From NCBI GenBank assembly GCA_963823665.1, contig CAWGMQ010000003.1:512001-576000 (forward strand): 64,000 bases of DNA, written 5' to 3'. Positions 7,138 through 20,046 of the stretch are shown piece by piece. The position numbers were made by a program, and so were the translations under genes. The notes beneath the pieces were generated by a model. That model saw nothing but the letters and a program-made list of their open reading frames with translations, did no database searches and was not told the DNA's origin. The stretch's first letter is position 1; every line of letters starts with the position of its first letter. Origin of the DNA: an uncultured Planctomycetota bacterium (GTDB taxonomy: Bacteria > Planctomycetota > Planctomycetia > Isosphaerales > Isosphaeraceae).

Positions 7138-8113
7138 ATGGAGATCGAAACAATCGCCGCCTTCCCCGAGCCGCGGCCGGTGCGGCCCCGGCTGTACGGC
7201 CGATCCGCTATCTGGACCAGCGGCATCACCGCAGTCCTGGCTTTTTCCGCGGGTCTGGCCGAGACGACGACCTGTGTCGCATTCGACCCGCAGGCACCCG
7301 GCCCGGCAGCGACCGCCAAGGGGACACTCGCAACCAAGGCAGACAAAGCAGACCAGTCCAGGTCGAAGGCGACGGTTTCCTTCGAGATGCTGGTGACCAA
7401 TCACATGCTGGTTGACGCAAAGATTAATGGTAAGGGTCCGTTTCGCTTGATTTTCGACCTGGGTGCACCGGTGACTTTGCTGAGTAACCGAGCAAGCGAG
7501 GCTGCGGGAGTCGTCAAGCCCGATGCGCCGAAGTCGTTCTTGTTTGGAATGAGAGGAGAAGCCGAGGTCAACCGGCTGCAAGTTGGTGATCTGACGGCAG
7601 ATAAGTTGCCGGTCATCGTCCTGGACCACCCTGTGCTCTCGGCGCTCGAGGACGTGACGGGACGGAAGATCGACGGAATCATGGGCTTTACATTTTTCGC
7701 CCGCTTCAAGACCACCATCGACTACCACGCTCGGGAGATGAGCTTCGAGCCCATTACCTATCAGGTCCGCAACCTGCTCAAGGAGCTTCCAGACCGGTTG
7801 ATGGGTCCCAAGGTGGCCCAGCGGCGGGTGGTGGCGCCATCGGGACTGTGGGGGCTTCGTCTGGGTGAACAAGCCAAGGGTGTCCAATCCCAGGGTGCTG
7901 CCGATTCTGAAGGTCCTGGAAGGCTCCCCTGCGGGCCAGGCCGGGCTCAAGGCCGGTGACATCCTCACAACGATCGACGGGCGCTGGGTCACGTCCGTCG
8001 CGGATGCCTATCACGCCGCCGCGAAAGTTCCTCCTGGCCAGCAGGTCACGATCGTGATTGTGCGGGACGGCAAGGAACTTTCGCTCTCGATCAAACCAGC
8101 GAACGGAATATGA
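7138..8113 (+). CDS. Aspartyl protease-like plus PDZ domain, paralog 2 (frameshift ~7890)
   Basis: NHMLVDAKINGKGPFRLIFDLGAP, DGIMGFTFFARF; PDZ VLEGSPAGQAGLKAGDILTTIDG in the 7865..8113 frame. Confidence 0.8.
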
Positions 8114-9250
8114 GCGATTCAACCACAGCGCTCTCAGGCTCCGCAAGGAGCGTGCTCGTTATCGGCGCGGGTGTCAGCGGGCTCACAAGCGCTCTTTGCC
8201 TGCTGCGAAGAGGCTTCGCGGTGACGGTGCTCGCGGATTCGTTCGCGCCGCGCGTAACCTCGGTTGTTGCCGGGGCCTTGTGGGAATGGCCTCCGGCCGT
8301 GTGCGGCTACCATCGCGACATCTTGTCGCTGGCGCGCTCGAAGGCGTGGTGCCGCTCATCACTTCAGATGTTCAGCGAGCTCTCGCTTCGACCAGCCGGA
8401 GACCGGCGTCTTCGTCAGACCCGTCTCCTATTACTTCAAGCGGCCGATCGAAGAGGATCCCTTCCATCTGGCGAAGATGGAAGACCTCAAGGACGAAGTT
8501 GCCGGTTTCCGGCATGATCGGGCGCTGATCGCGGAACACAGGGTCAACCCGGACCTGGGTCTGCAGGACGCGTACACTCATCTGGCTCCCATGGTCGACA
8601 CCGACACCTATATGCAATGGCTGTTTCGTGAGACTCGCAACGAAGGCTGCCGGGTCGTCGAAGGCAGGGTCAAGGGACTGCTTTCCGCCCAGGTACAGGC
8701 CCTGGCGGGGGAATTCAGGGCGGAGGCCATCGTCAACTGCGCCGGCCTGGGGTCCAGGGAACTCACCGCAGACTCGATGTATCCCCTTCGAGGTGCACTC
8801 GTGCGGGTGAAGAACGATGGGCGGGCCATGTCCCGGATCACCGACGCACATTGCATCTCACTGGACCACACTGGTCCGGAGCAGTCGTTCGTTTTCATCG
8901 TGCCGCGCGGCGAGGACATGCTGGTCCTCGGTGGCCTGGCAGAGCCGGACGAGTGGGACCTCGAGATTGGCCTGCATAATTACGATCCGGTCCGCCAGAT
9001 GTACCGGCGCTGCGTGCAGTTCATGCCGCGGCTGGCGAACGCCGAGATCGATGCTGCGGAGCCGGTTCGCGTCGGACTAAGGCCAATGCGCAACCCGGGC
9101 GTTCGCCTGGAAGCAGAGCCGCGGGCCCGCATCGTCCACAATTACGGACACGGCGGCTCGGGAGTGACGTTTTCGTGGGGCTGTGCTCTCGAGGTCGTCG
9201 ACCTGGTCGAACGCATGATCTGCTCCGAGGCGGCTGCCGGTCGCGCATGA
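8110..9250 (+). CDS. FAD-dependent D-amino-acid oxidase family protein (frameshift ~8390)
   Basis: VLVIGAGVSG FAD motif, TSVVAGALW, IVNCAGLG, VRVGLRPMR, VHNYGHGGSG; ORFs 8110..8517 and 8264..9250 join. Confidence 0.88.
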
Positions 9251-9330
9251 GAGAAACCTCACCCCCCCGCGAGCCGATTCGATCATCGGCCTCGGCCGGG
9301 TCGACAGCCACTTGTTGCGTACGCTCGCGA

Positions 9331-9972
9331 TCAGGCGTGTGGATCTTCGGAATGCGTGGGAACGACCCAGAGCTTGACCTCGCCGACGATGTCCGCCGCG
9401 AGCTGCACCTTGATGGAATAGAGGCCCAGCTCCTTGAGCGGCCCCTCGATGCGAACGCTCTCGGATTCGATAGGAAAACCTTCGCGCCTCAGCGTTTCCG
9501 CGATCTGGTCGGAGTTCACCGAGCCGTAAAGGTGACCTTCGGCGTTCGCGTTGGCCTCAATCGTGAGCGACCGCTGGCCGATCTGTGCCGCCAGATTTTG
9601 AAGGTCGGCCCGTCGCGCTTCCTCGAGAGCTCGCAGCCGCTGACGATGTTTCTCGACCATTCGCAGGTTATTTGCAGTCGCAAAGGTTGCCATTCCCTGC
9701 GGGACCAGGTAGTTGCGCGCGAAGCCGGGGCGAACCTTGACCAGATCGCCGGACTGCCCGACCAGGGGCACGGTCTGGGTCAGGATGAGCTGGATATAAC
9801 CGTGCTTCGCCCGGCTCGGGTGATTCTGGCGGCGCTCAACGCCCGGCTTACGCGGCGGACCGGCGGGCGCTGCTTGCTGAGAACCTTCTGCCGTTCGAGG
9901 GTGACTCTTTCCGGTCGCAGTCTTGGAGGAGGATTTCGGAGCCTTCGTTTTGGTATCAGTCGTCTTGGCCAT
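9331..9972 (-). CDS. rplI: 50S ribosomal protein L9 with N-terminal low-complexity extension
   Basis: GQSGDLVKVRPGFARNYLVPQGMA, GHLYGSV, GPLKELGLY. Confidence 0.95.
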   Translation of the reverse strand: MAKTTDTKTKAPKSSSKTATGKSHPRTAEGSQQAAPAGPPRKPGVERRQNHPSRAKHGYIQLILTQTVPLVGQSGDLVKVRPGFARNYLVPQGMATFATANNLRMVEKHRQRLRALEEARRADLQNLAAQIGQRSLTIEANANAEGHLYGSVNSDQIAETLRREGFPIESESVRIEGPLKELGLYSIKVQLAADIVGEVKLWVVPTHSEDPHA

Positions 9973-10024
9973 GAGAATCCCGATCTTGGTGATTCAACCG
10001 CACCCGAACAGGGCGGAAGCTGAT

Positions 10025-10143
10025 GTCAGGCGGAAAGCGTGACTGGCGGGGAAAGCCAGTGCCAGGCTTGAGCCTGAACGGCTGGAAACGAACGTCAGGC
10101 CAAAGCCTGACCCACGGGGACGTCAGGCAAGAGCCTGACCTAC
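10025..10143. repeat. Cluster of GTAG-type REP-like palindromes (GTCAGGC-n-GCCTGAC)
   Basis: Four hairpins: gtcaggcggaaagcgtgac, gccaggcttgagcctga, gtcaggccaaagcctgac and gtcaggcaagagcctgacctac; the last ends in CTAC (GTAG on the minus strand). Confidence 0.75.
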
Positions 10144-10298
10144 AATTGGCGAACCCTATGTTTGTAACCTGGAAAGCGTCTTGAACCAAGGTGTGCATCT
10201 GTGCGCATCGGCTGAGAAAGGGGTCGCTCTCCCCCACATCGCTCGTCCGAATACGAGCGCCAGGGAACGCGACCGACGTCGGTGTGTATGGGGCGACA

Positions 10299-10877
10299 TC
10301 AGAAGGGAATGTCTTCCGCTTCATCGTCGCGGGCGACTGCTGCGGATGGTCTCGCAGACCCACCGCTCGGCTCGACGGAAGCATCGGAACCACCGGAACC
10401 ACCGGAACCACCGCGCACTGCGCTCGTGGCAGCGGATGAGCTTCGACTGGATGGGGACGACGAGCTGCGCCGCGGGCTCGACTCGCGTCCTGGGTTCATC
10501 TCGTCGTCAGAAGAGCCTCCTGGCTCACTCAATGAATCACCGCGACGGCTGTCGAGGAACTGCACGCGATCAGCCTGCACGCGAATTTTCGAGCGCTTTT
10601 CGCCGGTGCTCTTGTCCTCCCAGGTGTCCATCTTGAGCGAGCCCTCGACGTGGATCCCGCTCCCTTTCCTGAGACGCTCGCAGCAGATCTCCGCCTGGCG
10701 ATCCCACACGGTCACATCGATGAAGAGCTTTTCCTCGCGGCGCTCGCCCTCGCGCGACATCCACGAGCGGCTGGTGACCAATCGTAGTTCGGCCACGGCC
10801 GTACCGGAGGGAGTGCGGCGCAACTCGGGATCGAACGTCAGGCTGCCCATCAAGAAGACTCTGTTCAAGTCGGCCAT
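10299..10877 (-). CDS. ssb: Single-stranded DNA-binding protein
   Basis: MADLNRVFLMGSLTFDPELRRTPSG OB fold, G/S-rich linker, acidic EDIPF C-terminus; GGAG RBS. Confidence 0.96.
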   Translation of the reverse strand: MADLNRVFLMGSLTFDPELRRTPSGTAVAELRLVTSRSWMSREGERREEKLFIDVTVWDRQAEICCERLRKGSGIHVEGSLKMDTWEDKSTGEKRSKIRVQADRVQFLDSRRGDSLSEPGGSSDDEMNPGRESSPRRSSSSPSSRSSSAATSAVRGGSGGSGGSDASVEPSGGSARPSAAVARDDEAEDIPF

Positions 10878-10931
10878 CGCCAATTCTCCTCGGGATGAAT
10901 TCCTCGGCAACGAACTCAGAAACCTCGGGGC

Positions 10932-11849
10932 TTGCGCCATGGGAACTGCACCCGCCCATCAGTTCCACCGCAACATATACTAAACGGTTGTCCCCCATCG
11001 GGGAAATTATCACAATTGGGCTCGAGCGACAAGGGCCAAGGCCCCTCGCTCATGGGTGATTCGCAAACGATGGGTTATGGCGTCAGTGATGGCGCACAGT
11101 ATCCGAGCTTGATTGGCAAGACGCTCGAGGCACGCTTTGGACCGGACCGGTTTACAATGATCAACACGACGTTGGCCGGTATGGGGAACGGCCGGTGGAT
11201 CAAATTGTTGCGAGGGGGCGTTTGGGGGTTTCAGCCCCGGCTGGTGATCCTGCAACTCTCCAACACTGACTTTGGCGACAATGAACGGGAAGGGCTTTTC
11301 AAGCTGTCCCCTTCGGGTGAGCTGGTCGAGCTGCCCTTGCAGCCCGCTCCGATGATGCTCCAACTCGATCGGCTCGTCGACGCGATTCCTGGCCTGTCCT
11401 ATTCCTACACGATTGGGCTGTGCAAGCAGGTGGTCGCCCAGGTGATCTCCCAGCACGCCCGGACGATCGCTGCTGCCGGATCATTCAATCCGCCAGGGAG
11501 TCACCCACTGACCTACAAACTCGTCGAGGAGTCGATCGCGATGTGTCGGCGTGAGGGCTGGCCGGTGCGGTTGCTCGCGACCGATCATGAGCGAGAAGCC
11601 CTGGCGGAGATCGAGCAGTTTTGCAGCCGGCTCCATGTTCCGCTGGTTGCGGTGCCAACCAGACGCATGCGTCCGGACCTGTTTTATGCGATCGACCCTC
11701 ACTGGAACGTGGCGGGGCAACGCTATGTGGCGGACTTGATCGAAGCGCGGCTCGCAGCCGAAGGAATTCTGCTCGGCTCGCCGGAGCAGAAGAGTGAAGG
11801 CGGACGCCAGACGACCGCTGCGCTCAACTGCCGCGGCGACGCTCGATGA
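10932..11849 (+). CDS. SGNH/GDSL hydrolase family protein, probably N-terminally truncated
   Basis: MGDSQTMGYGV block I and DPHWN (DxxH-like) block V; no convincing N-terminus or RBS. Confidence 0.65.
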   Translation: MRHGNCTRPSVPPQHILNGCPPSGKLSQLGSSDKGQGPSLMGDSQTMGYGVSDGAQYPSLIGKTLEARFGPDRFTMINTTLAGMGNGRWIKLLRGGVWGFQPRLVILQLSNTDFGDNEREGLFKLSPSGELVELPLQPAPMMLQLDRLVDAIPGLSYSYTIGLCKQVVAQVISQHARTIAAAGSFNPPGSHPLTYKLVEESIAMCRREGWPVRLLATDHEREALAEIEQFCSRLHVPLVAVPTRRMRPDLFYAIDPHWNVAGQRYVADLIEARLAAEGILLGSPEQKSEGGRQTTAALNCRGDAR

Positions 11850-11989
11850 GTGATCGATGGAAAACGCAGGGGTTGACAGGTGGGATCGGCCGTGTTGAAG
11901 AGCATCGCTTCAGTAACAGAACGGCCGGGTGTTGGAGATCAAGACGGGGTAACGGAAGAAGGCTGCGGGTTGCGCGGGGGAACGCGTCC

Positions 11990-12751
11990 ATGACGACAGT
12001 CCTGGGAATCTCGGCACTCTATCACGACAGCGCCGCTGCTCTGACCGTTGACGGTGAAGTCGTCGCGGCCGCGCAGGAGGAGCGGTTCAGCCGTGAGAAG
12101 TACGACCCGCGGTTTCCAGCGCAGGCAGTCCGCTATTGCCTGGATGAAGCCGCGATCGGTCCCGAGCAACTCGATTATGTCGCCCTTTATGAACAACCCC
12201 TGACCAAGTTCGAGCGGCTGTTCGAGACCTACGTGTCCTACGCCCCGGACGGGTTCGCCAGCTTCCGGCAGGCCATTCCCGTCTGGCTGCGCCAGAAGCT
12301 GCACATTCCACGCGAAATTCGCCGCGGGCTGGAGGAACGGTACCGCGGCCAGATCTTCTTTCCCAGCCATCACGAAAGCCATGCCGCCAGCGCCTTCTTT
12401 CCCTCGCCGTTCGACGAGGCCGCCATCATCACCATGGACGCCGTCGGCGAGCGGTCCACTTCCGCCATCGGATTCGGCCGCGGCAACCACCTCGACTTGC
12501 TTCAGGAAATCCGCTTTCCCCACTTCCTCGGCATGTTCTACAGCGCCTTCACTTACTACTGTGGCTTCAAGGTCAACAGCGCCGAGTACAAGCTGATGGG
12601 CCTGGCACCCTACGGCGAGCCCAGGTTCGTCGACCTGATCAAGCAGAACCTGATCGATGTCAAGGACGACGGCAGCTATCGTCATCGGCCGCCGCCGGCC
12701 GGAGGGACAGAACGCGACATGATCACGTCCGGGCGAGCTCGCCAAACCTGA
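11990..12751 (+). pseudogene. NodU/CmcH-type carbamoyltransferase, N-terminal domain only
   Basis: LGISALYHDSAAAL, AAQEERFSR, HHESHAASAF, EYKLMGLAPYG; similarity stops after DDGSY (~12680) and the C-terminal domain is absent before the next gene. Confidence 0.85.
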
Positions 12752-12777
12752 GTCCGAAGCACTTCAAGGAGCCAAAC

Positions 12778-12990
12778 ATGGATCCGCAACGTGCTGACCC
12801 GAATACGACCGACAATGAGCAACTGTTCCTGAAAGAGAAGAATCCTGGCTTCCTGGCTGGATTCTGGCATTTCTTGATGGAGAGCAAGAAGTGGTGGCTA
12901 GTTCCGCCCCTGCTCTTCCTGCTCTTGCTCTGCGTGCTGCTCGCGCTGTCTCAAACCGCGGCTGCGCCACTTATTTACACCCTGTTTTGA
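12778..12990 (+). CDS. DUF5989-type small membrane protein
   Basis: FWHFLMESKKWWLVP...AAAPLIYTLF is characteristic of the small protein that accompanies carbamoyltransferase/SxtJ clusters. Confidence 0.8.
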   Translation: MDPQRADPNTTDNEQLFLKEKNPGFLAGFWHFLMESKKWWLVPPLLFLLLLCVLLALSQTAAAPLIYTLF

Positions 12991-13011
12991 GCGGGGGCGA
13001 GCCGAAGCGAT

Positions 13012-14461
13012 TCAAGGTTGGCCGGCGGCGGTGTATTTCCAGCCCGGGCCGCCGCCAAAGACACGGTTCGTGCCGGCCAGCGGCAAGCCAGTGATGAGCG
13101 AGGCTTCGAGCGAGAGCGCCCGAAGATCTTCGGGCTCGAGGTGGTGCACGTCGCTCTTGCCGCAGGCGCGGGCCAGAATCTGGATTTCCGAGGTCAAGGC
13201 GTGGAAGAAGTTGGCGACGCGCTCGGAGGCAGCCTCGACTTCCAGCCTTACGGCAAGCTCGGGATCTTGAGTCGTGATGCCGACCGGGCAGCGTCCGGTG
13301 TGACAGTGGTGGCACGAGTAGGGGGCAGCGCCGATCTTGTGGTAGTCTTCGATGAAGATCGGTTTGTTGCAGTTGAGCGCAATCAGGAGCGCCGTGCCCA
13401 GGTAGCAGGCGTCGGCGCCCAAGGCAAGCGCCTTGGCGCAATCGGAGCCGTGCCTGAGCCCGCCGGCGATCACGAGCTGCACCTTGCCGTAAAGGCCGAT
13501 GTCCTCGAGGGCGGCGCGTGCCTCACAGACCGCTGCGAGTGTCGGGATTCCGGTGTGTTCCTGCAGAAGCTCCGGCGAAGCTCCGGTGCCTCCTTCCATG
13601 CCGTCGACGACGATCACGTCGGCGCCTGCCTTCGCCGCAAGCCGGACGTCGTCGAAGACGCGCGACGCACCCATCTTGACGAAGATTGGTACTTCATGAC
13701 CGGTGGCCTCGCGCAGCTCTTCGATCTTCCAGATCAGGTCATCCGGACCGAGGAAATCAGGATGCCGGCACGGGGAACGTTGATCGACACCCGGGGGGAG
13801 ATCGCGGAGCCCGGCGATTTCCGCGGAAACTTTCGAGCCCAGAAGCAGACCCCCGGTGCCGGGTTTGGCTCCCTGGCCGATCGTGAGCTCGATCGCATCA
13901 GCCTGGCGAAGGTGCTGGATGTTGATGCCGTAGCGGCTGGGCAGGACCTCGTAGATCAGAACCCGCGACTCGGTGCGCTCGAGATCGAGCATTCCACCGT
14001 CGCCGGTGGTCGAAGACGTGCCGGCCATCCGCGCCCCGCGTGCGAGTGCCTGCTTCGCCTGCCGCGAAAGGGCCCCGTAGCTCATGCCGGTGACCATGAG
14101 CGGGATGTCGAGCTCGAGCGGCCTGGTGGCGAATCGCGTGCCCAGGACGGTGCGTGAGGAACACGCCTCGCGGTAGCCTTCCAGCGGAATGCGGGTGAGC
14201 GTGCCGGGCAGGAACGTGAGATCGTCGAAGGTGGCCCAGGTTCGCTCGCGGAGCGCGCCGAAGCCGCGGATGCGGTACCTTGCGCAGCTCGGCTTTGATC
14301 TGGATGTCCTCGATCACCGCGGGGCTGAACGTCGCCGAGGTGGCCGCGGGGGACGGATCGCCACCGATCCGGCGAGCGGTGTCCGTCGCGCCGAAGAATG
14401 GGGTACGCGGCTGCGAGGCCTGCGGCTGCCCGGCTCGGTCAAACGACTCGCCCGGGTCCAT
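13012..14461 (-). CDS. mgsC: FMN-binding glutamate synthase-like protein, N-methylglutamate synthase subunit C type (frameshift ~14285)
   Basis: SATF, FDDLTFL, PLEGYRE, TGMSYGALS, STTGDGG, GQGAKPGTGGLLLG, RSPCRHPD, DGMEGGT, CHHCHTGRCPVGITTQDP; context with mgsAB and gmaS. Confidence 0.85.
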
Positions 14462-14477
14462 GAGTCCCCTCCCTCTC

Positions 14478-15377
14478 TCAGATCATGAACTCAGGAGCGA
14501 CCGGTTCCGAGCTTGCCGCCGATCCATTGGCGCCGGCGGAGGGAAGCCCGCGGGCAGTGCTCGATTCGCACTCGCGAAGGTATTGCTTCGCGGGCTCGGC
14601 GAAGTCGGAATGGTTGGTCAGCTTGAGCACTCGCTGAAAATCGGCGGCGGCCTCGCGCACGAGCCCCTTCCTGAGCAAACAGATGCCGCGGTTCAAGTGC
14701 GTGTCGGGGTCGTTTGCCCGCAGGGTCATCAGCATGCCGAAGTCGGCGAGGGCCGAGTCGAAGTCGCCGCTCTCGAGGCAAATCTTGCCGCGCTGCGTAT
14801 AAGCGGCGGTGAACCGCGAATCGCGCTCGATCGCCCGCTCGAAGTCGGCAAGCGCGAGCGTTTTCTCGCCCATTGTCTGATAGAGAGCGCCCCTGCGGAA
14901 ATAACCTTCCGCCAGATTGGGCGACGTCTTGATCGCCTGGTTGTACTCGCGCAGCGCGGCCGCATATTTCTTCTGGGCATGATGCCGCCGGCCCGCCCGG
15001 AGCCGGCTCGGCACGAGCTCACGGAGCCGGCGCCTGGTCGAAACTAGCACGGACGACATCACGACCGCAGCGACTGCCGGCAACGTCACCAGCCCGAGCA
15101 GCAGCGACAGACGCGACCGTTCGCTTTGACGGTACGTTGTGACCGCGATGTGTGCACTGCTCCGCACCGTGACGGTTTGCTCGCGAACTGTCCACATGAA
15201 AGCCACGATGGCCACGACGGCGAGGAGCCCGAAGGCCCGGGCCGTTTTCCTGAGCTTGCCGAGGCTCAGGCAGGCGACGGCAATCACCAGCAAGAGAGCG
15301 GCTACGCCCAGTGCCGCGAGCAGCGCCGTACGGCTCGGCCAATTGATGATACGATCATAATAATCAGCGAACGTCAT
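14478..15377 (-). CDS. Membrane-anchored TPR protein
   Basis: Three N-terminal hydrophobic segments then TPRs (AEGYFRRG, AAYTQRG, THLNRGICLL). Confidence 0.8.
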   Translation of the reverse strand: MTFADYYDRIINWPSRTALLAALGVAALLLVIAVACLSLGKLRKTARAFGLLAVVAIVAFMWTVREQTVTVRSSAHIAVTTYRQSERSRLSLLLGLVTLPAVAAVVMSSVLVSTRRRLRELVPSRLRAGRRHHAQKKYAAALREYNQAIKTSPNLAEGYFRRGALYQTMGEKTLALADFERAIERDSRFTAAYTQRGKICLESGDFDSALADFGMLMTLRANDPDTHLNRGICLLRKGLVREAAADFQRVLKLTNHSDFAEPAKQYLRECESSTARGLPSAGANGSAASSEPVAPEFMI

Positions 15378-15651
15378 TTTAGGAGAGCTCTCACCGCCGC
15401 CGTCCCCGTTGTCATCGTCGCGGGAGCACGCTTCGCTCTGCGAACACTAGAAGATTTTGACGATCAGTTCCCTGAACCCGCCTGGGGCCAGTTGTTGCGG
15501 CCGACGGATTGTTGATCAAAAGTCTGCAGGAAGGGTTTCGCCACCAGGATGAGTGCAGCCAGGCGCCGTTCACTCTACGGGGCGCGATGCGCGGTGTCAA
15601 TTGCGTCGAGCGGCGGCCCCACCAATTTTTCCCACTGGAGCTCCCACGCGA

Positions 15652-16380
15652 TCACAAGGCGGCTTTCCACAGTGCTCGCTCGCTCCGCTCGAAGTTCCAG
15701 AGCCTCCTGCCGGAAACCACCTTTTGAAAGCCCCCCGGCGGGGCAGTCACCTTGTAGCGCTCGAGCGAGGTCGCGATCAGCTCGAGGTCGGCGTCGGAAA
15801 CCTCTTCGTAAACCGCGTCGGCGCCGAGCTCGCTACAACTGCCGCCGAGAAAAACGGTGCCGGCATACATGCTGTCGGCGAGCCCGGCACCGGCGTCACC
15901 ACACACGACCAGCACGCCCTTCTGCATCATGAATCCGGCCATCGGGCCCACGCTGCCGGCCACAATGAGCATCCCGCCTTTCATCGCGATGCCGGCGCGA
16001 GTCGACGCATCGCCCCTGACCACAACCGTTCCAGCACGTATCGAGGCGGAGACGGCGTTGCCAGCGTTTCCGTCGATTACCACAGTGCCGTCACGCATGC
16101 TCTCAGCGGCACCCCACCCTGCTCCGCCGTGGACGAATAATGTGGCGCCGTCGTTCAAGCCCGCGACGTAGTAGCCGACGCTCCCCTCGATCGTGAGCTC
16201 GATGCCCTCCGGCAGGCCGACGCCCAGGTTGTGCCGGCCGCCGGGCCGAAGCAGGCGAATCGTCCTGTAACCCGAGGCGATCGCAGATCGAATCGCCTCG
16301 TTGATTGCGCGGACAGGTCCTTCGCCGCAGTCGACGACCTCCGCGTTCCCGTTCGACGGCAGCGACGCACTCGAGGTCAT
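15652..16380 (-). CDS. mgsB: GXGXG-domain protein, N-methylglutamate synthase subunit B type
   Basis: HNLGVG, GSVGYYVAG and repeated GxAG...xMxxG beta-helix units; 4-bp overlap with mgsA. Confidence 0.85.
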   Translation of the reverse strand: MTSSASLPSNGNAEVVDCGEGPVRAINEAIRSAIASGYRTIRLLRPGGRHNLGVGLPEGIELTIEGSVGYYVAGLNDGATLFVHGGAGWGAAESMRDGTVVIDGNAGNAVSASIRAGTVVVRGDASTRAGIAMKGGMLIVAGSVGPMAGFMMQKGVLVVCGDAGAGLADSMYAGTVFLGGSCSELGADAVYEEVSDADLELIATSLERYKVTAPPGGFQKVVSGRRLWNFERSERALWKAAL

Positions 16381-17312
16381 GCAGTCCTCAACGGATAGAA
16401 CAGTACCGAGCCTGGGGGCGGCTCGACCGCGATGTAATCCCCCGGTAATGCCCGCCGCAGCGCAATCTCTTCGGTTGCCACCGCGACGAAATCGTCTGTC
16501 TCCGCCAGCATGAGCGGTTTGAATCCGTAGCGGTCGCGCACGACCCCCAGGCCCTCGGTCGAAGCGACCAGGTAGTTGAATGCTCCGTCCAGGTCGGCAA
16601 CGGAATCGGCGAGCGCGCCCTCCAGGCTGCGCCCCTCTCCCATCCGATCGCGGAGGTAAACGCCGATCACCTCGGAATCATTGTCGGTGTAGAAGATCAC
16701 GCCCTGCTGCTCGTAGCGCCGGCGAAGCTGATGGAAATTTGTGACGTGGCCGTTGTGGACGGTGGCCAGGTCGGGGACTCCATGCACCCAGAACGGCTGG
16801 GAGTGGCTCAAGTCAATGCGGCTTTCGGTGGATAATCGAGTGTGGCCGATGGCCAGCGGGCCGGTCCAGGCGGCGATCGAATAAGCCGCCTCGAGCTGCG
16901 ACGGCGAGCCGACCTGCTTGACCAGATCGAGCCTGTGGCCGAGACTCAGGATTTCCAGTCCGCCGCGGCAGGCACCGAGTGCCTGTTCGAGAACGGTCGG
17001 CGTTACGCCGGGGTTGGGAACGAAGCGAGCGCGCAGCGAGGAGCCGGTTCGCTCGCGACGGGAACCGACCGGGAGCGGGACCAGCCGGCCCAGGTGCGCC
17101 AGCCGTTCAAACGGCGGCTCGTCCCGACCGGCAAAGCGAATGAACCAGGCACCGTCCAATCCCGAGTCGGCGTCGGGCTCCCTTCCGATCATCGCCAGCC
17201 CGGCGCCATCGGGCCCCCGGCAGGCCAGTGCCTCGAGCATCGTGAGCATGATGCGCCCGCTGGAGGCCGACAACCGCCCCGACTTGTCCCGGAACCCGAC
17301 GATTCCACACAT
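16377..17312 (-). CDS. mgsA: Class II glutamine amidotransferase, N-methylglutamate synthase subunit A type
   Basis: MCGIVG N-terminal nucleophile, RGPDGAG, IGHTRLSTES, HSQPF, VHNG, DNDSEV, RDRYGFKP. Confidence 0.85.
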   Translation of the reverse strand: MCGIVGFRDKSGRLSASSGRIMLTMLEALACRGPDGAGLAMIGREPDADSGLDGAWFIRFAGRDEPPFERLAHLGRLVPLPVGSRRERTGSSLRARFVPNPGVTPTVLEQALGACRGGLEILSLGHRLDLVKQVGSPSQLEAAYSIAAWTGPLAIGHTRLSTESRIDLSHSQPFWVHGVPDLATVHNGHVTNFHQLRRRYEQQGVIFYTDNDSEVIGVYLRDRMGEGRSLEGALADSVADLDGAFNYLVASTEGLGVVRDRYGFKPLMLAETDDFVAVATEEIALRRALPGDYIAVEPPPGSVLFYPLRTA

Positions 17313-17444
17313 GGCCCACTCTGGTAAGTTGAAAATCGGCCGGCCGCACGCCAATTCTACTGGCCCTGGCGGCGGCTGTCGCCAACAATCGTGTTTCGAA
17401 TGCATCGGCCGCTCGTCGCAGCAGAAGAAAGGACCTCACCCGGC

Positions 17445-18815
17445 ATGGCCCACCTCGAGGCGGAGCTAACCAGGCTCGAACACCGAATGCAGGACGACGC
17501 AATCGCCTTCCTGCTGATCCAGTTCGTTGACATCCACGGGTCGGCCAAGGTCAAGCTCGTGCCGGCGAGCACGCTGAAATCTGTGGCCGCATCCGGCGCC
17601 GGATTCGCAGGCGGCGCCCTGTGGGGCATGGGCCAAGGACCTCACTCACACGATCTATTCGCCCGGCCTGATCTGAGCTCGTATACCCCTCTGCCCTATG
17701 AGCCGGGCGTCGCACGGTTTGCCTCCGATCTCCATGTCGACGACCAGCCCCACCCTTACTGCCCGCGGGTCGCGCTCAAGCGGGTGCTCGAAGAGGCGCG
17801 GCGACGGGGCTACGTCTTCAACGCCGGCATCGAGCCCGAGTTCTTCCTGGTCGTCAAGAACCCGGACGGCTCGATTCAAGGCTGGGATCCGTACAACGTC
17901 GATGATCTGGCCAAACCCTGTTACGACTTCAAGGGAATCTGTGGCGCGCTCGACTTTCTGCGTGCGCTCGGAGAGGGACTCGATCGGCTCGGGTGGGGCG
18001 TCTACCAGAGCGATCATGAAGACGCCAATTATCAATACGAGGTGAACTTCCAGTACGCCGACGCACTGACGACGGCCGACCGCTTCACCTTCTTCCGCAT
18101 GATGACCGGGCAGCTTGCACGCCGCTTCGGCGCGATTGCGACCTTCATGGCCAAGCCCTTCTCGACCCGCACGGGCTCGGGTGCTCATATGCATTACCAT
18201 CTCGCCGATGCCGGCGGCGGGGGCAATCTCTTTCTCGATGCGGCAGACCCGCGCAGGCTCGGTCTCTCAAGGACCGCGTATCAATTCATCGCGGGCATAC
18301 TCGAGCATGCGCCAGCGCTTTGTGCGGTCACGTCGCCGACGGTGAATTGCTACAAGCGGCTGCAGATGGGCCCCGCGCTTACCGGGTCGCGTTCGGGATA
18401 CACGTGGACGCCGGCGTTCATCACTTACGGCGACAACAACCGAACGCAGATGCTCCGGGTGCCGGATGGGGGCCACATCGAGGACCGGTCGATTTCGAGC
18501 GCGTTCAATCCGTATCTCGGAATCGCGGCGTACGTGGCCGCCGGTTTGGATGGGATTTCCCGCGGGCTTGACCCCGGTGAGCCGAACCTGGGGAATCTCT
18601 ATACCGCGGATATCGAGACGATGGCGAGCCGCGGCGTGCGGACATTGCCGCAGAGCCTCGCCGAGGCGATCGGTTTTCTCGAGCGAGATCAGGTCGTTCG
18701 CGAAAGCTTGGGGCCGATTGCAGACGAATTCCTGCGGCTCAAGCGCGACGAGTGGCGTGAGTATCATGCGCAAGTGGAAACCTGGGAGATCAAGCGATAC
18801 TTATCGGTGCTTTGA
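17445..18815 (+). CDS. gmaS: Type III glutamate-ammonia ligase / gamma-glutamylmethylamide synthetase
   Basis: FVDIHGSAKVKLVP, GAGFAGGA, GIEPEFF, KPCYD, VYQSDHEDANYQYE, TFMAKPF, YGDNNRTQMLR; divergent from mgsA. Confidence 0.85.
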   Translation: MAHLEAELTRLEHRMQDDAIAFLLIQFVDIHGSAKVKLVPASTLKSVAASGAGFAGGALWGMGQGPHSHDLFARPDLSSYTPLPYEPGVARFASDLHVDDQPHPYCPRVALKRVLEEARRRGYVFNAGIEPEFFLVVKNPDGSIQGWDPYNVDDLAKPCYDFKGICGALDFLRALGEGLDRLGWGVYQSDHEDANYQYEVNFQYADALTTADRFTFFRMMTGQLARRFGAIATFMAKPFSTRTGSGAHMHYHLADAGGGGNLFLDAADPRRLGLSRTAYQFIAGILEHAPALCAVTSPTVNCYKRLQMGPALTGSRSGYTWTPAFITYGDNNRTQMLRVPDGGHIEDRSISSAFNPYLGIAAYVAAGLDGISRGLDPGEPNLGNLYTADIETMASRGVRTLPQSLAEAIGFLERDQVVRESLGPIADEFLRLKRDEWREYHAQVETWEIKRYLSVL

Positions 18816-18840
18816 GGGCGCGAGATCGAAAGGCGAATTG

Positions 18841-20046
18841 ATGGACGTCTACCACGAGAAGAATGTGATCGTCGGTGCCGGCGCAATGGGATCGGCCGCG
18901 GCCTATCATCTCGCGCGGCGCGGCGAGCCGGTACTGCTGATCGAACAGTTTTCGCTCGGTCACGACCGGGGAAGCTCGCACGGGGCGGCCCGGATCACAC
19001 GGCACTCCTACGCCGACGCGGCGTACGCCCGGCTCATGCCCGCGGCATTCCGCGCCTGGCGAGAGCTTGAGGCCTCCTCCGGCGAAACCCTCTTTTTCCG
19101 GACCGGCGGCGTGTCGTTCTCACCGCCGGGCGTCGATTACGTCGCGAAGGTCGCAGCCAACCTGAATGAACTGGGAATTCCCCACTGGCGGTCGTCGGGG
19201 AAAGACTGGAACGCACGTTGCAGAGCCTACACCCTGCCCGGCGATTACGACGTCGTGTTCGAGCCCGATGCCGGCATGCTAGCCGCGGCGCGGGCTGTCT
19301 CGCTCATGGTCGAGCTGGCCCGCTGCATGGGCGGCGCGGCAACCCGCGTTCTGGAGCAAACTCCGGTTCGACAGATCGATCTCGATGGCGATCACCCGGT
19401 CGTCGTGACCGACGCGTCGCGGATCATCGCCGATCGACTCATCGTCTCGGCCGGCGCCTGGGTGAAGCGGCTTCTACCCGGATTTTCTGTGCCGCTTCGC
19501 GCGACACGCCAGCAAGTGCTCTACGTCACGCCCGATGACCCGGCACCGTTCCGGATCGGGTCGTTTCCTGTTTTTATTTTCAAGGGCGCAAGCGATCTCG
19601 ACGCTTTCTACGGGATGCCCCCGTTCCTGAATCCCGGAGTCAAAACGGCTCGGCATGGCGGCCCGGAAGTCGACCCCGAGAACGTCGATCCCACGCCGTC
19701 CGAAGAGGCCATCGCCAGCGTCCGCCGCTTTCTGGGCGATCACATCCCGGCGCTCGAAGACGCTCGAATCAGCCAGACCGAAGTGTGTCTTTATACGCTC
19801 GCGCCCAACGATCAATTCCAGGTCGACTTCATGCCGGGACGCGACGACATGCTCATCGCCAGCCCTTGCAGCGGACATGGATTCAAATTCTCATGCTTGG
19901 TCGGACACGCATTGGCAGACCTTGCCACTTCTGGCGTAACCGAGCTCGACATCGACGCGTGGCGAATCGATCCGACCGACACCCCGCAGCGTTCCGAATA
20001 TCGCTCGCAGCAACATCCGGCCGCCACCGGGAAACCTGACGGATGA
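18841..20046 (+). CDS. Monomeric sarcosine oxidase / N-methyltryptophan oxidase family flavoprotein
   Basis: VGAGAMGS, GSSHGAARITR, VCLYT (covalent-FAD Cys position), SPCSGHGFKF. Confidence 0.88.
   Translation: MDVYHEKNVIVGAGAMGSAAAYHLARRGEPVLLIEQFSLGHDRGSSHGAARITRHSYADAAYARLMPAAFRAWRELEASSGETLFFRTGGVSFSPPGVDYVAKVAANLNELGIPHWRSSGKDWNARCRAYTLPGDYDVVFEPDAGMLAAARAVSLMVELARCMGGAATRVLEQTPVRQIDLDGDHPVVVTDASRIIADRLIVSAGAWVKRLLPGFSVPLRATRQQVLYVTPDDPAPFRIGSFPVFIFKGASDLDAFYGMPPFLNPGVKTARHGGPEVDPENVDPTPSEEAIASVRRFLGDHIPALEDARISQTEVCLYTLAPNDQFQVDFMPGRDDMLIASPCSGHGFKFSCLVGHALADLATSGVTELDIDAWRIDPTDTPQRSEYRSQQHPAATGKPDG

Follow-up and report, generated by a model that had tools for sequence, protein, structure and literature searches.

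The window (the whole 64,000-nucleotide stretch that was analyzed) comes from genome G000 (16.5 Mb, 91.9% complete) and carries a divergent gene cluster in which gmaS and a gene for a SolA/MSOX-family flavoprotein lie on one strand, with mgsA, mgsB, a TPR protein gene and mgsC on the other (Table 1). The gap between the gmaS stop codon (TGA at 18815) and the oxidase start is 25 nt. A promoter scan returned three weak, uninformative sites. Elsewhere in the window, a D-amino-acid-oxidase-like gene (PF01266; positions 8110-9250, plus strand) is split over two frames near 8330, which is probably an assembly error.

Table 1. Features of the gmaS-mgs cluster and of the oxidase gene within the window.
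Feature	Position	Strand	Remarks
mgsC, FMN subunit	13012..14461	-	PF01645; frameshift near 14284
Membrane-anchored TPR protein gene, within mgs operon	14478..15377	-	TPR domains
mgsB, GXGXG subunit	15652..16380	-	PF01493
mgsA, N-methylglutamate synthase amidotransferase subunit	16377..17312	-	GATase_6/7; starts MCGIVG
gmaS, gamma-glutamylmethylamide synthetase	17391..18815	+	TIGR03105 above cut-off; true start probably some codons later
solA/MSOX-family flavoprotein, proposed N-methylglutamate oxidase	18841..20046	+	401 aa; NF008425 above cut-off; best PDB matches MSOX; single copy in G000
Lys248 codon (AAG)	19582..19584	+	aligned with Glu247 of Bacillus MSOX; candidate gamma-carboxylate binder for N-methylglutamate
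Cys316 codon	19786..19788	+	equivalent of Cys315, covalent FAD link in MSOX

The gmaS product scored 554.7 with the equivalog model TIGR03105 (cut-off 469.6), and its best PDB matches were a glutamate-methylamine ligase (9qur, E 1e-129) and RhGmaS (7cql). The methylamine-site residues of GmaS that are listed in passages of PMC7948447 are all present (Q-x-D-x-E...E-x-N, Tyr, Lys, Trp-for-Glu and Arg motifs as in RhGmaS). The protein is type III GS-like and lacks the ammonia-binding Asp and the Glu flap, which places it among GmaS proteins. Judged by its sequence, the gene upstream of the oxidase is a true gmaS. The GATase, GXGXG and Glu_synthase/FMN subunits of MgsABC are all encoded in the window. 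Identity is 32-37% between the mgsA product and the product of the gene that follows glnT in two clusters from proteobacteria, 38-41% between the mgsB product and proteobacterial glxC/mgsB, and 56-58% between the mgsC product and proteobacterial mgsC, the last match running over two frames. One extra base near 14284 breaks the mgsC frame. Because two short-read contigs from other runs (X2 and X3; one contig per run, depth about 3.5) lack this base, it is probably an assembly error; mgsC is intact in relatives. The TPR gene, which separates mgsB from mgsC in many genomes of the family, is absent from the clusters of several relatives and still adjoins solA in 23 Isosphaeraceae genomes without gmaS; it is probably a bystander.

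With MgsA and MgsB only 32-41% identical to their proteobacterial counterparts, the whole cluster could be a paralogous module for another amine, such as ethylamine, in which the oxidase would dealkylate the matching N-alkyl-glutamate. We regard this as very unlikely, since GmaS exceeds an equivalog cut-off, has methylamine ligases as its best structural matches and retains every listed methylamine-site residue, MgsC is considerably closer to its proteobacterial counterparts, and sister loci carry an ordinary mgdA-like soxB that is 70% identical to the soxB beside gmaS in Paraburkholderia.

The initial annotation had described the next gene as an MSOX/SolA-family member with the covalent-FAD cysteine, 25 bp after gmaS, and this was confirmed in each respect. 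The oxidase, which is the sole SolA in G000, scored 306.8 bits with the SolA/MTOX model NF008425 (NCBIfam; cut-off 257). With the monomeric amino oxidase model TIGR01377 it scored 264.8, below the cut-off of 479.65, and TIGR01373 (MgdA/SoxB) was not among the 14 families that matched it at E<=0.001. Its best solved relatives by sequence are monomeric sarcosine oxidases (E 2e-60), and MSOX structures were also the top Foldseek matches to its predicted fold (pLDDT 93; TM 0.86-0.88, rmsd about 2 A); the PDB title of the MSOX structural match reads “covalently flavinylated”. Cys316 aligns with Cys315 of Bacillus MSOX, which we take to be the FAD-linking residue, and is shared by at least 90% of the 73 relatives that were aligned. 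Residues R51, R54, Y57, Y257, K268, H272, C316, Y318 and K349 correspond to MSOX R49, R52, Y55, Y254, K265, H269, C315, Y317 and K348, and all are kept. The alignment contains three pocket changes from MSOX to the oxidase, F100 to Y100, M245 to I246 and E247 to K248, the first two of which set it apart from the strict F100/M245 pocket of monomeric sarcosine oxidases.

Bacillus MSOX (PDB 1el5, 2gb0) thus shares with the oxidase its fold (TM 0.88), ∼33% identity, the FAD-linking Cys and the carboxylate and oxygen-site residues, and differs from it at the three pocket positions, in the TIGR01377 score and in the gmaS-mgs context of the oxidase gene. MTOX is alike in passing NF008425 and in its class of chemistry; unlike MTOX, to which it is 28% identical, the oxidase lies on another branch of the tree and has Ile where MTOX has the pocket-widening Thr239. 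Passages of PMC12582975 give the roles of MSOX R52, Y55, F100, M245, Y254, H269 and K348, and also report that bulky substrates are poorer ones for Bacillus MSOX, which counts against N-methylglutamate as the substrate here.

The annotation had further noted that MgdABCD is missing from the window, and no mgd or sox gene was found there. The genome-wide search that it proposed for mgdABCD/soxBDAG, run for SoxD, SoxB and SoxA, gave the same outcome in the 91.9% complete G000. SoxD had 0 matches at E<=0.1, and the SoxB and SoxA models gave weak matches only, which were DadA-like, GcvT and YgfZ genes. The SoxB of a relative, used as the query, returned nothing from G000, found its own genome, and gave only 23-29% matches in three relatives that are 99-100% complete. 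The other DAO-family genes in G000 are DadA-like, GlpD, HpnW-like, CrtI, one unclassified and one DAAO-like. G000 also carries two genes of the H4MPT formaldehyde route, fae and mch, both scoring above cut-off. In the two verrucomicrobial genomes tested, mch was not found, so the formaldehyde sink must differ there.

In Methyloversatilis universalis and Methylorubrum extorquens DM4, the N-methylglutamate pathway is encoded by gmaS-mgsABC-mgdABCD, with gmaS and mgsABC clustered as they are here, and its last reaction, from N-methylglutamate to glutamate and a C1 unit, is the one that we propose for the oxidase (the GmaS, MgsABC and MgdABCD reactions are covered in passages of PMC5023235 and PMC6237917). 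Unlike in those organisms, mgdABCD was not found, a 401-aa SolA stands in its place, and mgsABC is divergent from gmaS. By homology, GmaS would convert methylamine, glutamate and ATP to gamma-glutamylmethylamide, and MgsABC would convert this to N-methylglutamate and ammonia. N-methylglutamate would then have to be demethylated, because otherwise each ammonia gained would cost one glutamate nitrogen. MSOX-type enzymes yield formaldehyde and H2O2. Following this family chemistry, SolA with its covalent FAD would oxidize the N-methyl group of N-methylglutamate with O2 as the electron acceptor, giving glutamate, free formaldehyde and H2O2. Because SolA has no folate-binding subunit, free formaldehyde and H2O2 are predicted in place of methylene-H4folate and reduced carriers, and the formaldehyde could flow into the Fae/H4MPT route. 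Such a variant would need oxygen but no folate, and would fit a use of methylamine chiefly for its nitrogen. We consider it likely that the product of the gene is a one-subunit N-methyl-L-glutamate oxidase forming glutamate, formaldehyde and H2O2, with N-methylglutamate as the putative substrate. The substrate range of the enzyme probably extends to other N-methyl amino acids, and it probably has a second job.

Among 121 Isosphaeraceae genomes, many of them incomplete MAGs, solA is near-universal and single-copy (100 genomes), gmaS occurs in 37 (38 matches, from which one 39%-identical paralogue was dropped) and soxD in only 3. The absence of soxD from 34 of the 37 gmaS genomes is not an incompleteness effect. 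The adjacency survey proposed with the annotation showed that in 32 of these 37 genomes solA comes directly after gmaS, with both genes on one strand (29 without sox genes and 3 with them), and that Gemmataceae and Verrucomicrobiae have this order too, there with unrelated SolA clades. In the remaining five, solA lies elsewhere in four and was not found in one, which is 76% complete. Two named complete genomes, Singulisphaera sp. PoT (L063) and Singulisphaera sp. Ch08 (L080), have the locus, and soxD was not found in either. In the three family genomes with sox genes, gmaS, solA and soxB(DAG) lie in one gene run. Genome G066 (locus L065) gave four soxD matches, three of which are on the contig with gmaS-solA-soxB. 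A 696-aa protein carrying both GmaS and SolA domains (P0109) was set aside as a probable frameshift artefact, because in a relative (L035) gmaS lies in three pieces before solA.

The family also contains 63 examined genomes with solA and without gmaS, and mgsC was found in none of 10 tested genomes of this kind with the K248-type enzyme. The simplest history that these data suggest is an ancestral cluster from which gmaS-mgs was lost many times while solA was retained in place. Such a history means a second function for solA outside the pathway, and the gene is probably not dedicated to N-methylglutamate alone; a single-purpose N-methylglutamate enzyme was rejected on these grounds.

Gene order was then compared at 80 gmaS loci from many phyla, of which 39 carry sox genes without solA and 16 carry solA without sox genes; 4 have both, and 21 have neither. 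No soxD was found in any of the 16 genomes of the solA-only class. Twenty of the genomes with neither enzyme at the locus were tested; soxD lies elsewhere in 12 and was not found in 8. Seven of those lacking soxD were tested further, and SolA is present elsewhere in 5 of them, leaving 2 with neither enzyme. Where both solA and sox were missing from the locus, no other oxidase was found after gmaS among the 58 ORFs covered of 101 picked. At Gemmataceae-type loci, the gene behind gmaS is soxB in three cases (L071, L077, L084), solA in four (L083, L085, L086, L093) and solA followed by soxB in one (L074). In L077 and L084 the sox genes are divided between the two arms of the divergent cluster: soxB comes after gmaS, and soxD and soxA come after mgsC. 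In five Gemmataceae genomes whose SolA is close to the linked clade, gmaS was not detected by a search run without a positive control.

In the class Verrucomicrobiae, SolA occurs in 31 of 351 genomes (9%). A close gmaS match is present in 8 of the 351, after 25 distant GlnT-like matches were left out; solA lies directly behind gmaS in 6 of these and sox genes in 2. When the six gmaS-solA genomes were tested, five had no soxD and five had no soxB. Distant GlnT-like genes of planctomycetes (39-48%) were likewise left out, there being no mgs gene or solA beside them. The gmaS-solA order was also found on three metagenome contigs (L236, L238 and L239) among 8 loci returned. Elsewhere in Planctomycetia, solA is common, follows host families and has unrelated neighbours. 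Sarcosine-pathway genes were not found beside unlinked solA in 45 scanned flanking proteins (of 59 ORFs picked at 20 class-level loci), nor in the family clusters.

The SolA proteins encoded behind gmaS fall into four clades (one from Isosphaeraceae, one from Gemmataceae and two verrucomicrobial) that are 30-39% identical to one another. A single clade for all gmaS-linked SolA was rejected with a p-AU of 0.00013, a value obtained with 15 rows versus 22 on a quick tree and with the grouping label taken from gene order. Note that the linked set includes one unlinked family member, and that earlier trees had been viewed before the grouping was made; all trees are quick or FastTree trees. The recurrent filling of the mgd slot, the place after gmaS that mgdABCD/soxBDAG takes in most other bacteria, by different SolA genes is the strongest evidence for an N-methylglutamate oxidase. 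The four clades arose either by separate recruitment or through later exchange of solA in an operon that moved, and either way they imply selection for a SolA in that slot. The second verrucomicrobial linked clade (L291, L297, L301 and L304) has an odd active site, in which MSOX Tyr55 is replaced by His and Tyr317 by Phe, and His269 is missing.

These distributions also bear on a less favorable reading, in which the protein is a general oxidase of sarcosine and other N-methyl amino acids with little activity on N-methylglutamate. Its place next to gmaS-mgs would then reflect shared regulation by methylated nitrogen compounds, and an unrecognized enzyme would demethylate N-methylglutamate. In keeping with this are the lone SolA of the genome, which follows the descent of the host family, the 63 genomes that keep solA without gmaS, the unlinked SolA in several sox-containing genomes, the four loci with both enzymes, and the few gmaS-mgs genomes with neither SolA nor nearby sox genes. 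To the last group belong three planctomycete loci with gmaS-mgsABC (L148, L151 and L153), where no SolA was found in the genomes and no sox gene within about 9 kb. Left unexplained would be the four separate SolA clades in exactly the mgd slot, the lack of soxD at 16 of 16 solA-only loci, the presence of SolA in 6 of 8 verrucomicrobial gmaS genomes versus 9% of the class, and an E-to-K change in two linked clades; nor is any other candidate gene common to these loci. We therefore judge a general oxidase of this kind to be improbable. The proposal of the initial annotation that a one-subunit ending may replace MgdABCD is supported by the missing sox genes in G000, by the conserved and recurrent gmaS-solA order and by the lack of soxD in the solA-only genomes. 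It is qualified by the survival of solA without gmaS-mgs and by the four loci that hold both enzymes.

The four loci at which solA and soxB(DAG) lie in one run of genes could alternatively be accounted for by an upstream role, in which the oxidase cleaves the non-methyl C-N bond of an N-methylated compound, so that methylamine is freed for GmaS, as the phosphonate oxidases PbfC/D do with N-methyl-aminoethylphosphonate. PF01266 enzymes that turn M1AEP into phosphonoacetaldehyde do exist (passages of PMC10590968). The oxidase, on the other hand, has the active site and fold of MSOX/MTOX-type enzymes, which attack the methyl group by oxidation (passages of PMC13213491), and with an upstream role the pathway would have no final step in 33 family genomes that lack sox. 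We give this possibility very little credence.

Returning to N-methylglutamate as the substrate, the pocket change E247 to K248 provides a testable lead. In the structure model, K248 lies two residues past the equivalent of MSOX Met245 (I246), at the end of strand 244-248, which forms a hairpin with strand 255-259; the latter carries Y257 (MSOX Y254). Because side chains alternate along a strand, K248 should face the same side as I246, and in this model it is a candidate handle for the gamma-carboxylate of N-methylglutamate. K248 is present in 30 of 30 readable family members with gmaS and without sox (33 in total, of which two are frameshifted there and one is cut off). In the three members with sox genes, position 248 is M or V, and these three losses belong to one clade. 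K248 is also present in 36 of the 63 family members without gmaS. All non-K tips on the family tree are gmaS-less or have sox genes, and the tree has 14 changes at this position, mostly to Met. In a branch test, 2 of 16 changes fell on gmaS branches versus 38% expected (p 0.026, uncorrected); the position ranks 6 of 273 columns and is not significant after correction. Use of K248 as a clean marker was abandoned when the contrast in a first small sample (13/13 versus 5/15) weakened on the full family to the counts given above. Outside the family, Lys was confined to one verrucomicrobial clade, where five of the six members have it; none of the 67 remaining SolA proteins does, and 54 of these have E or D. 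The other two linked clades lack K248; across the hairpin, at position 255, 9 of their 10 proteins have His, as do 8 of 57 others, a weaker signal.

The initial annotation knew of no description of a one-subunit variant, and we likewise found no link between SolA/MSOX and N-methylglutamate in the open-access literature, a body of text that mostly excludes subscription papers such as the classic MSOX/MTOX substrate studies. The available passages of PMC3160333 mention both without linking them, and those of PMC5023230 and PMC2474590 are not relevant to such a link. The one-subunit ending is a probable, and apparently new, variant of the known N-methylglutamate pathway. Somewhat less firmly, we favor a wider picture in which Planctomycetota and Verrucomicrobiota of soil and freshwater recruited SolA at least four times as a one-subunit, O2-dependent N-methylglutamate oxidase, in two cases with the same Glu-to-Lys switch by the pocket. 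This would give bacteria not known as methylamine users a five-gene, folate-independent pathway for methylamine nitrogen, would supply a physiological substrate for planctomycete SolA, and would deliver free formaldehyde to the planctomycete H4MPT pathway.

Surveys that require mgdABCD would call the pathway of these genomes incomplete. If the proposal is correct, about 30% of Isosphaeraceae genomes (37/121) can draw nitrogen from methylamine, as can some Gemmataceae and Verrucomicrobiae, and a four-subunit complex has been replaced repeatedly and non-orthologously by a single subunit with a new enzyme activity. A formaldehyde source would also be named in planctomycetes, where the role of the H4MPT genes is, to our knowledge, unsettled. 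The H4MPT genes themselves are documented in passages of PMC5020050. Direct tests are feasible, as the locus is present in Singulisphaera sp. Ch08, which is in pure culture (passages of PMC11279305). A monomeric oxidase could also serve as a simple reagent for assaying N-methylglutamate.

Several other arrangements were observed around gmaS. In the planctomycete loci L148, L151 and L153, mgsA-mgsB-mgsC is followed by an additional 363-aa gene that weakly resembles Glu_synthase, and this by gmaS; in L151, mgsB and mgsC read as one ORF. On plasmid p1 of Cupriavidus metallidurans BS1 (L273:715-8032 and 8893-19275), gmaS-mgsABC and dimethylamine monooxygenase genes adjoin one 395-aa FAD oxidoreductase that is 25-28% identical to SolA and SoxB and 36% identical to an unlinked Gemmataceae protein. 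Its other neighbours encode ETF alpha/beta, ETF-quinone oxidoreductase, HutD and N-formylglutamate deformylase, and no soxD was found within 9 kb; this locus may be a third way for the pathway to end, with one ETF-linked subunit. In a spirochaete MAG (L129:1212-2654), a gene for the trimethylamine methyltransferase MttB lies directly before gmaS. An Acinetobacter plasmid (L275:5122-13861) carries gmaS-mgsABC and two ammonium transporter genes, with no mgd gene in that stretch, and Acinetobacter is the source of 20 of the 33 plasmid matches.
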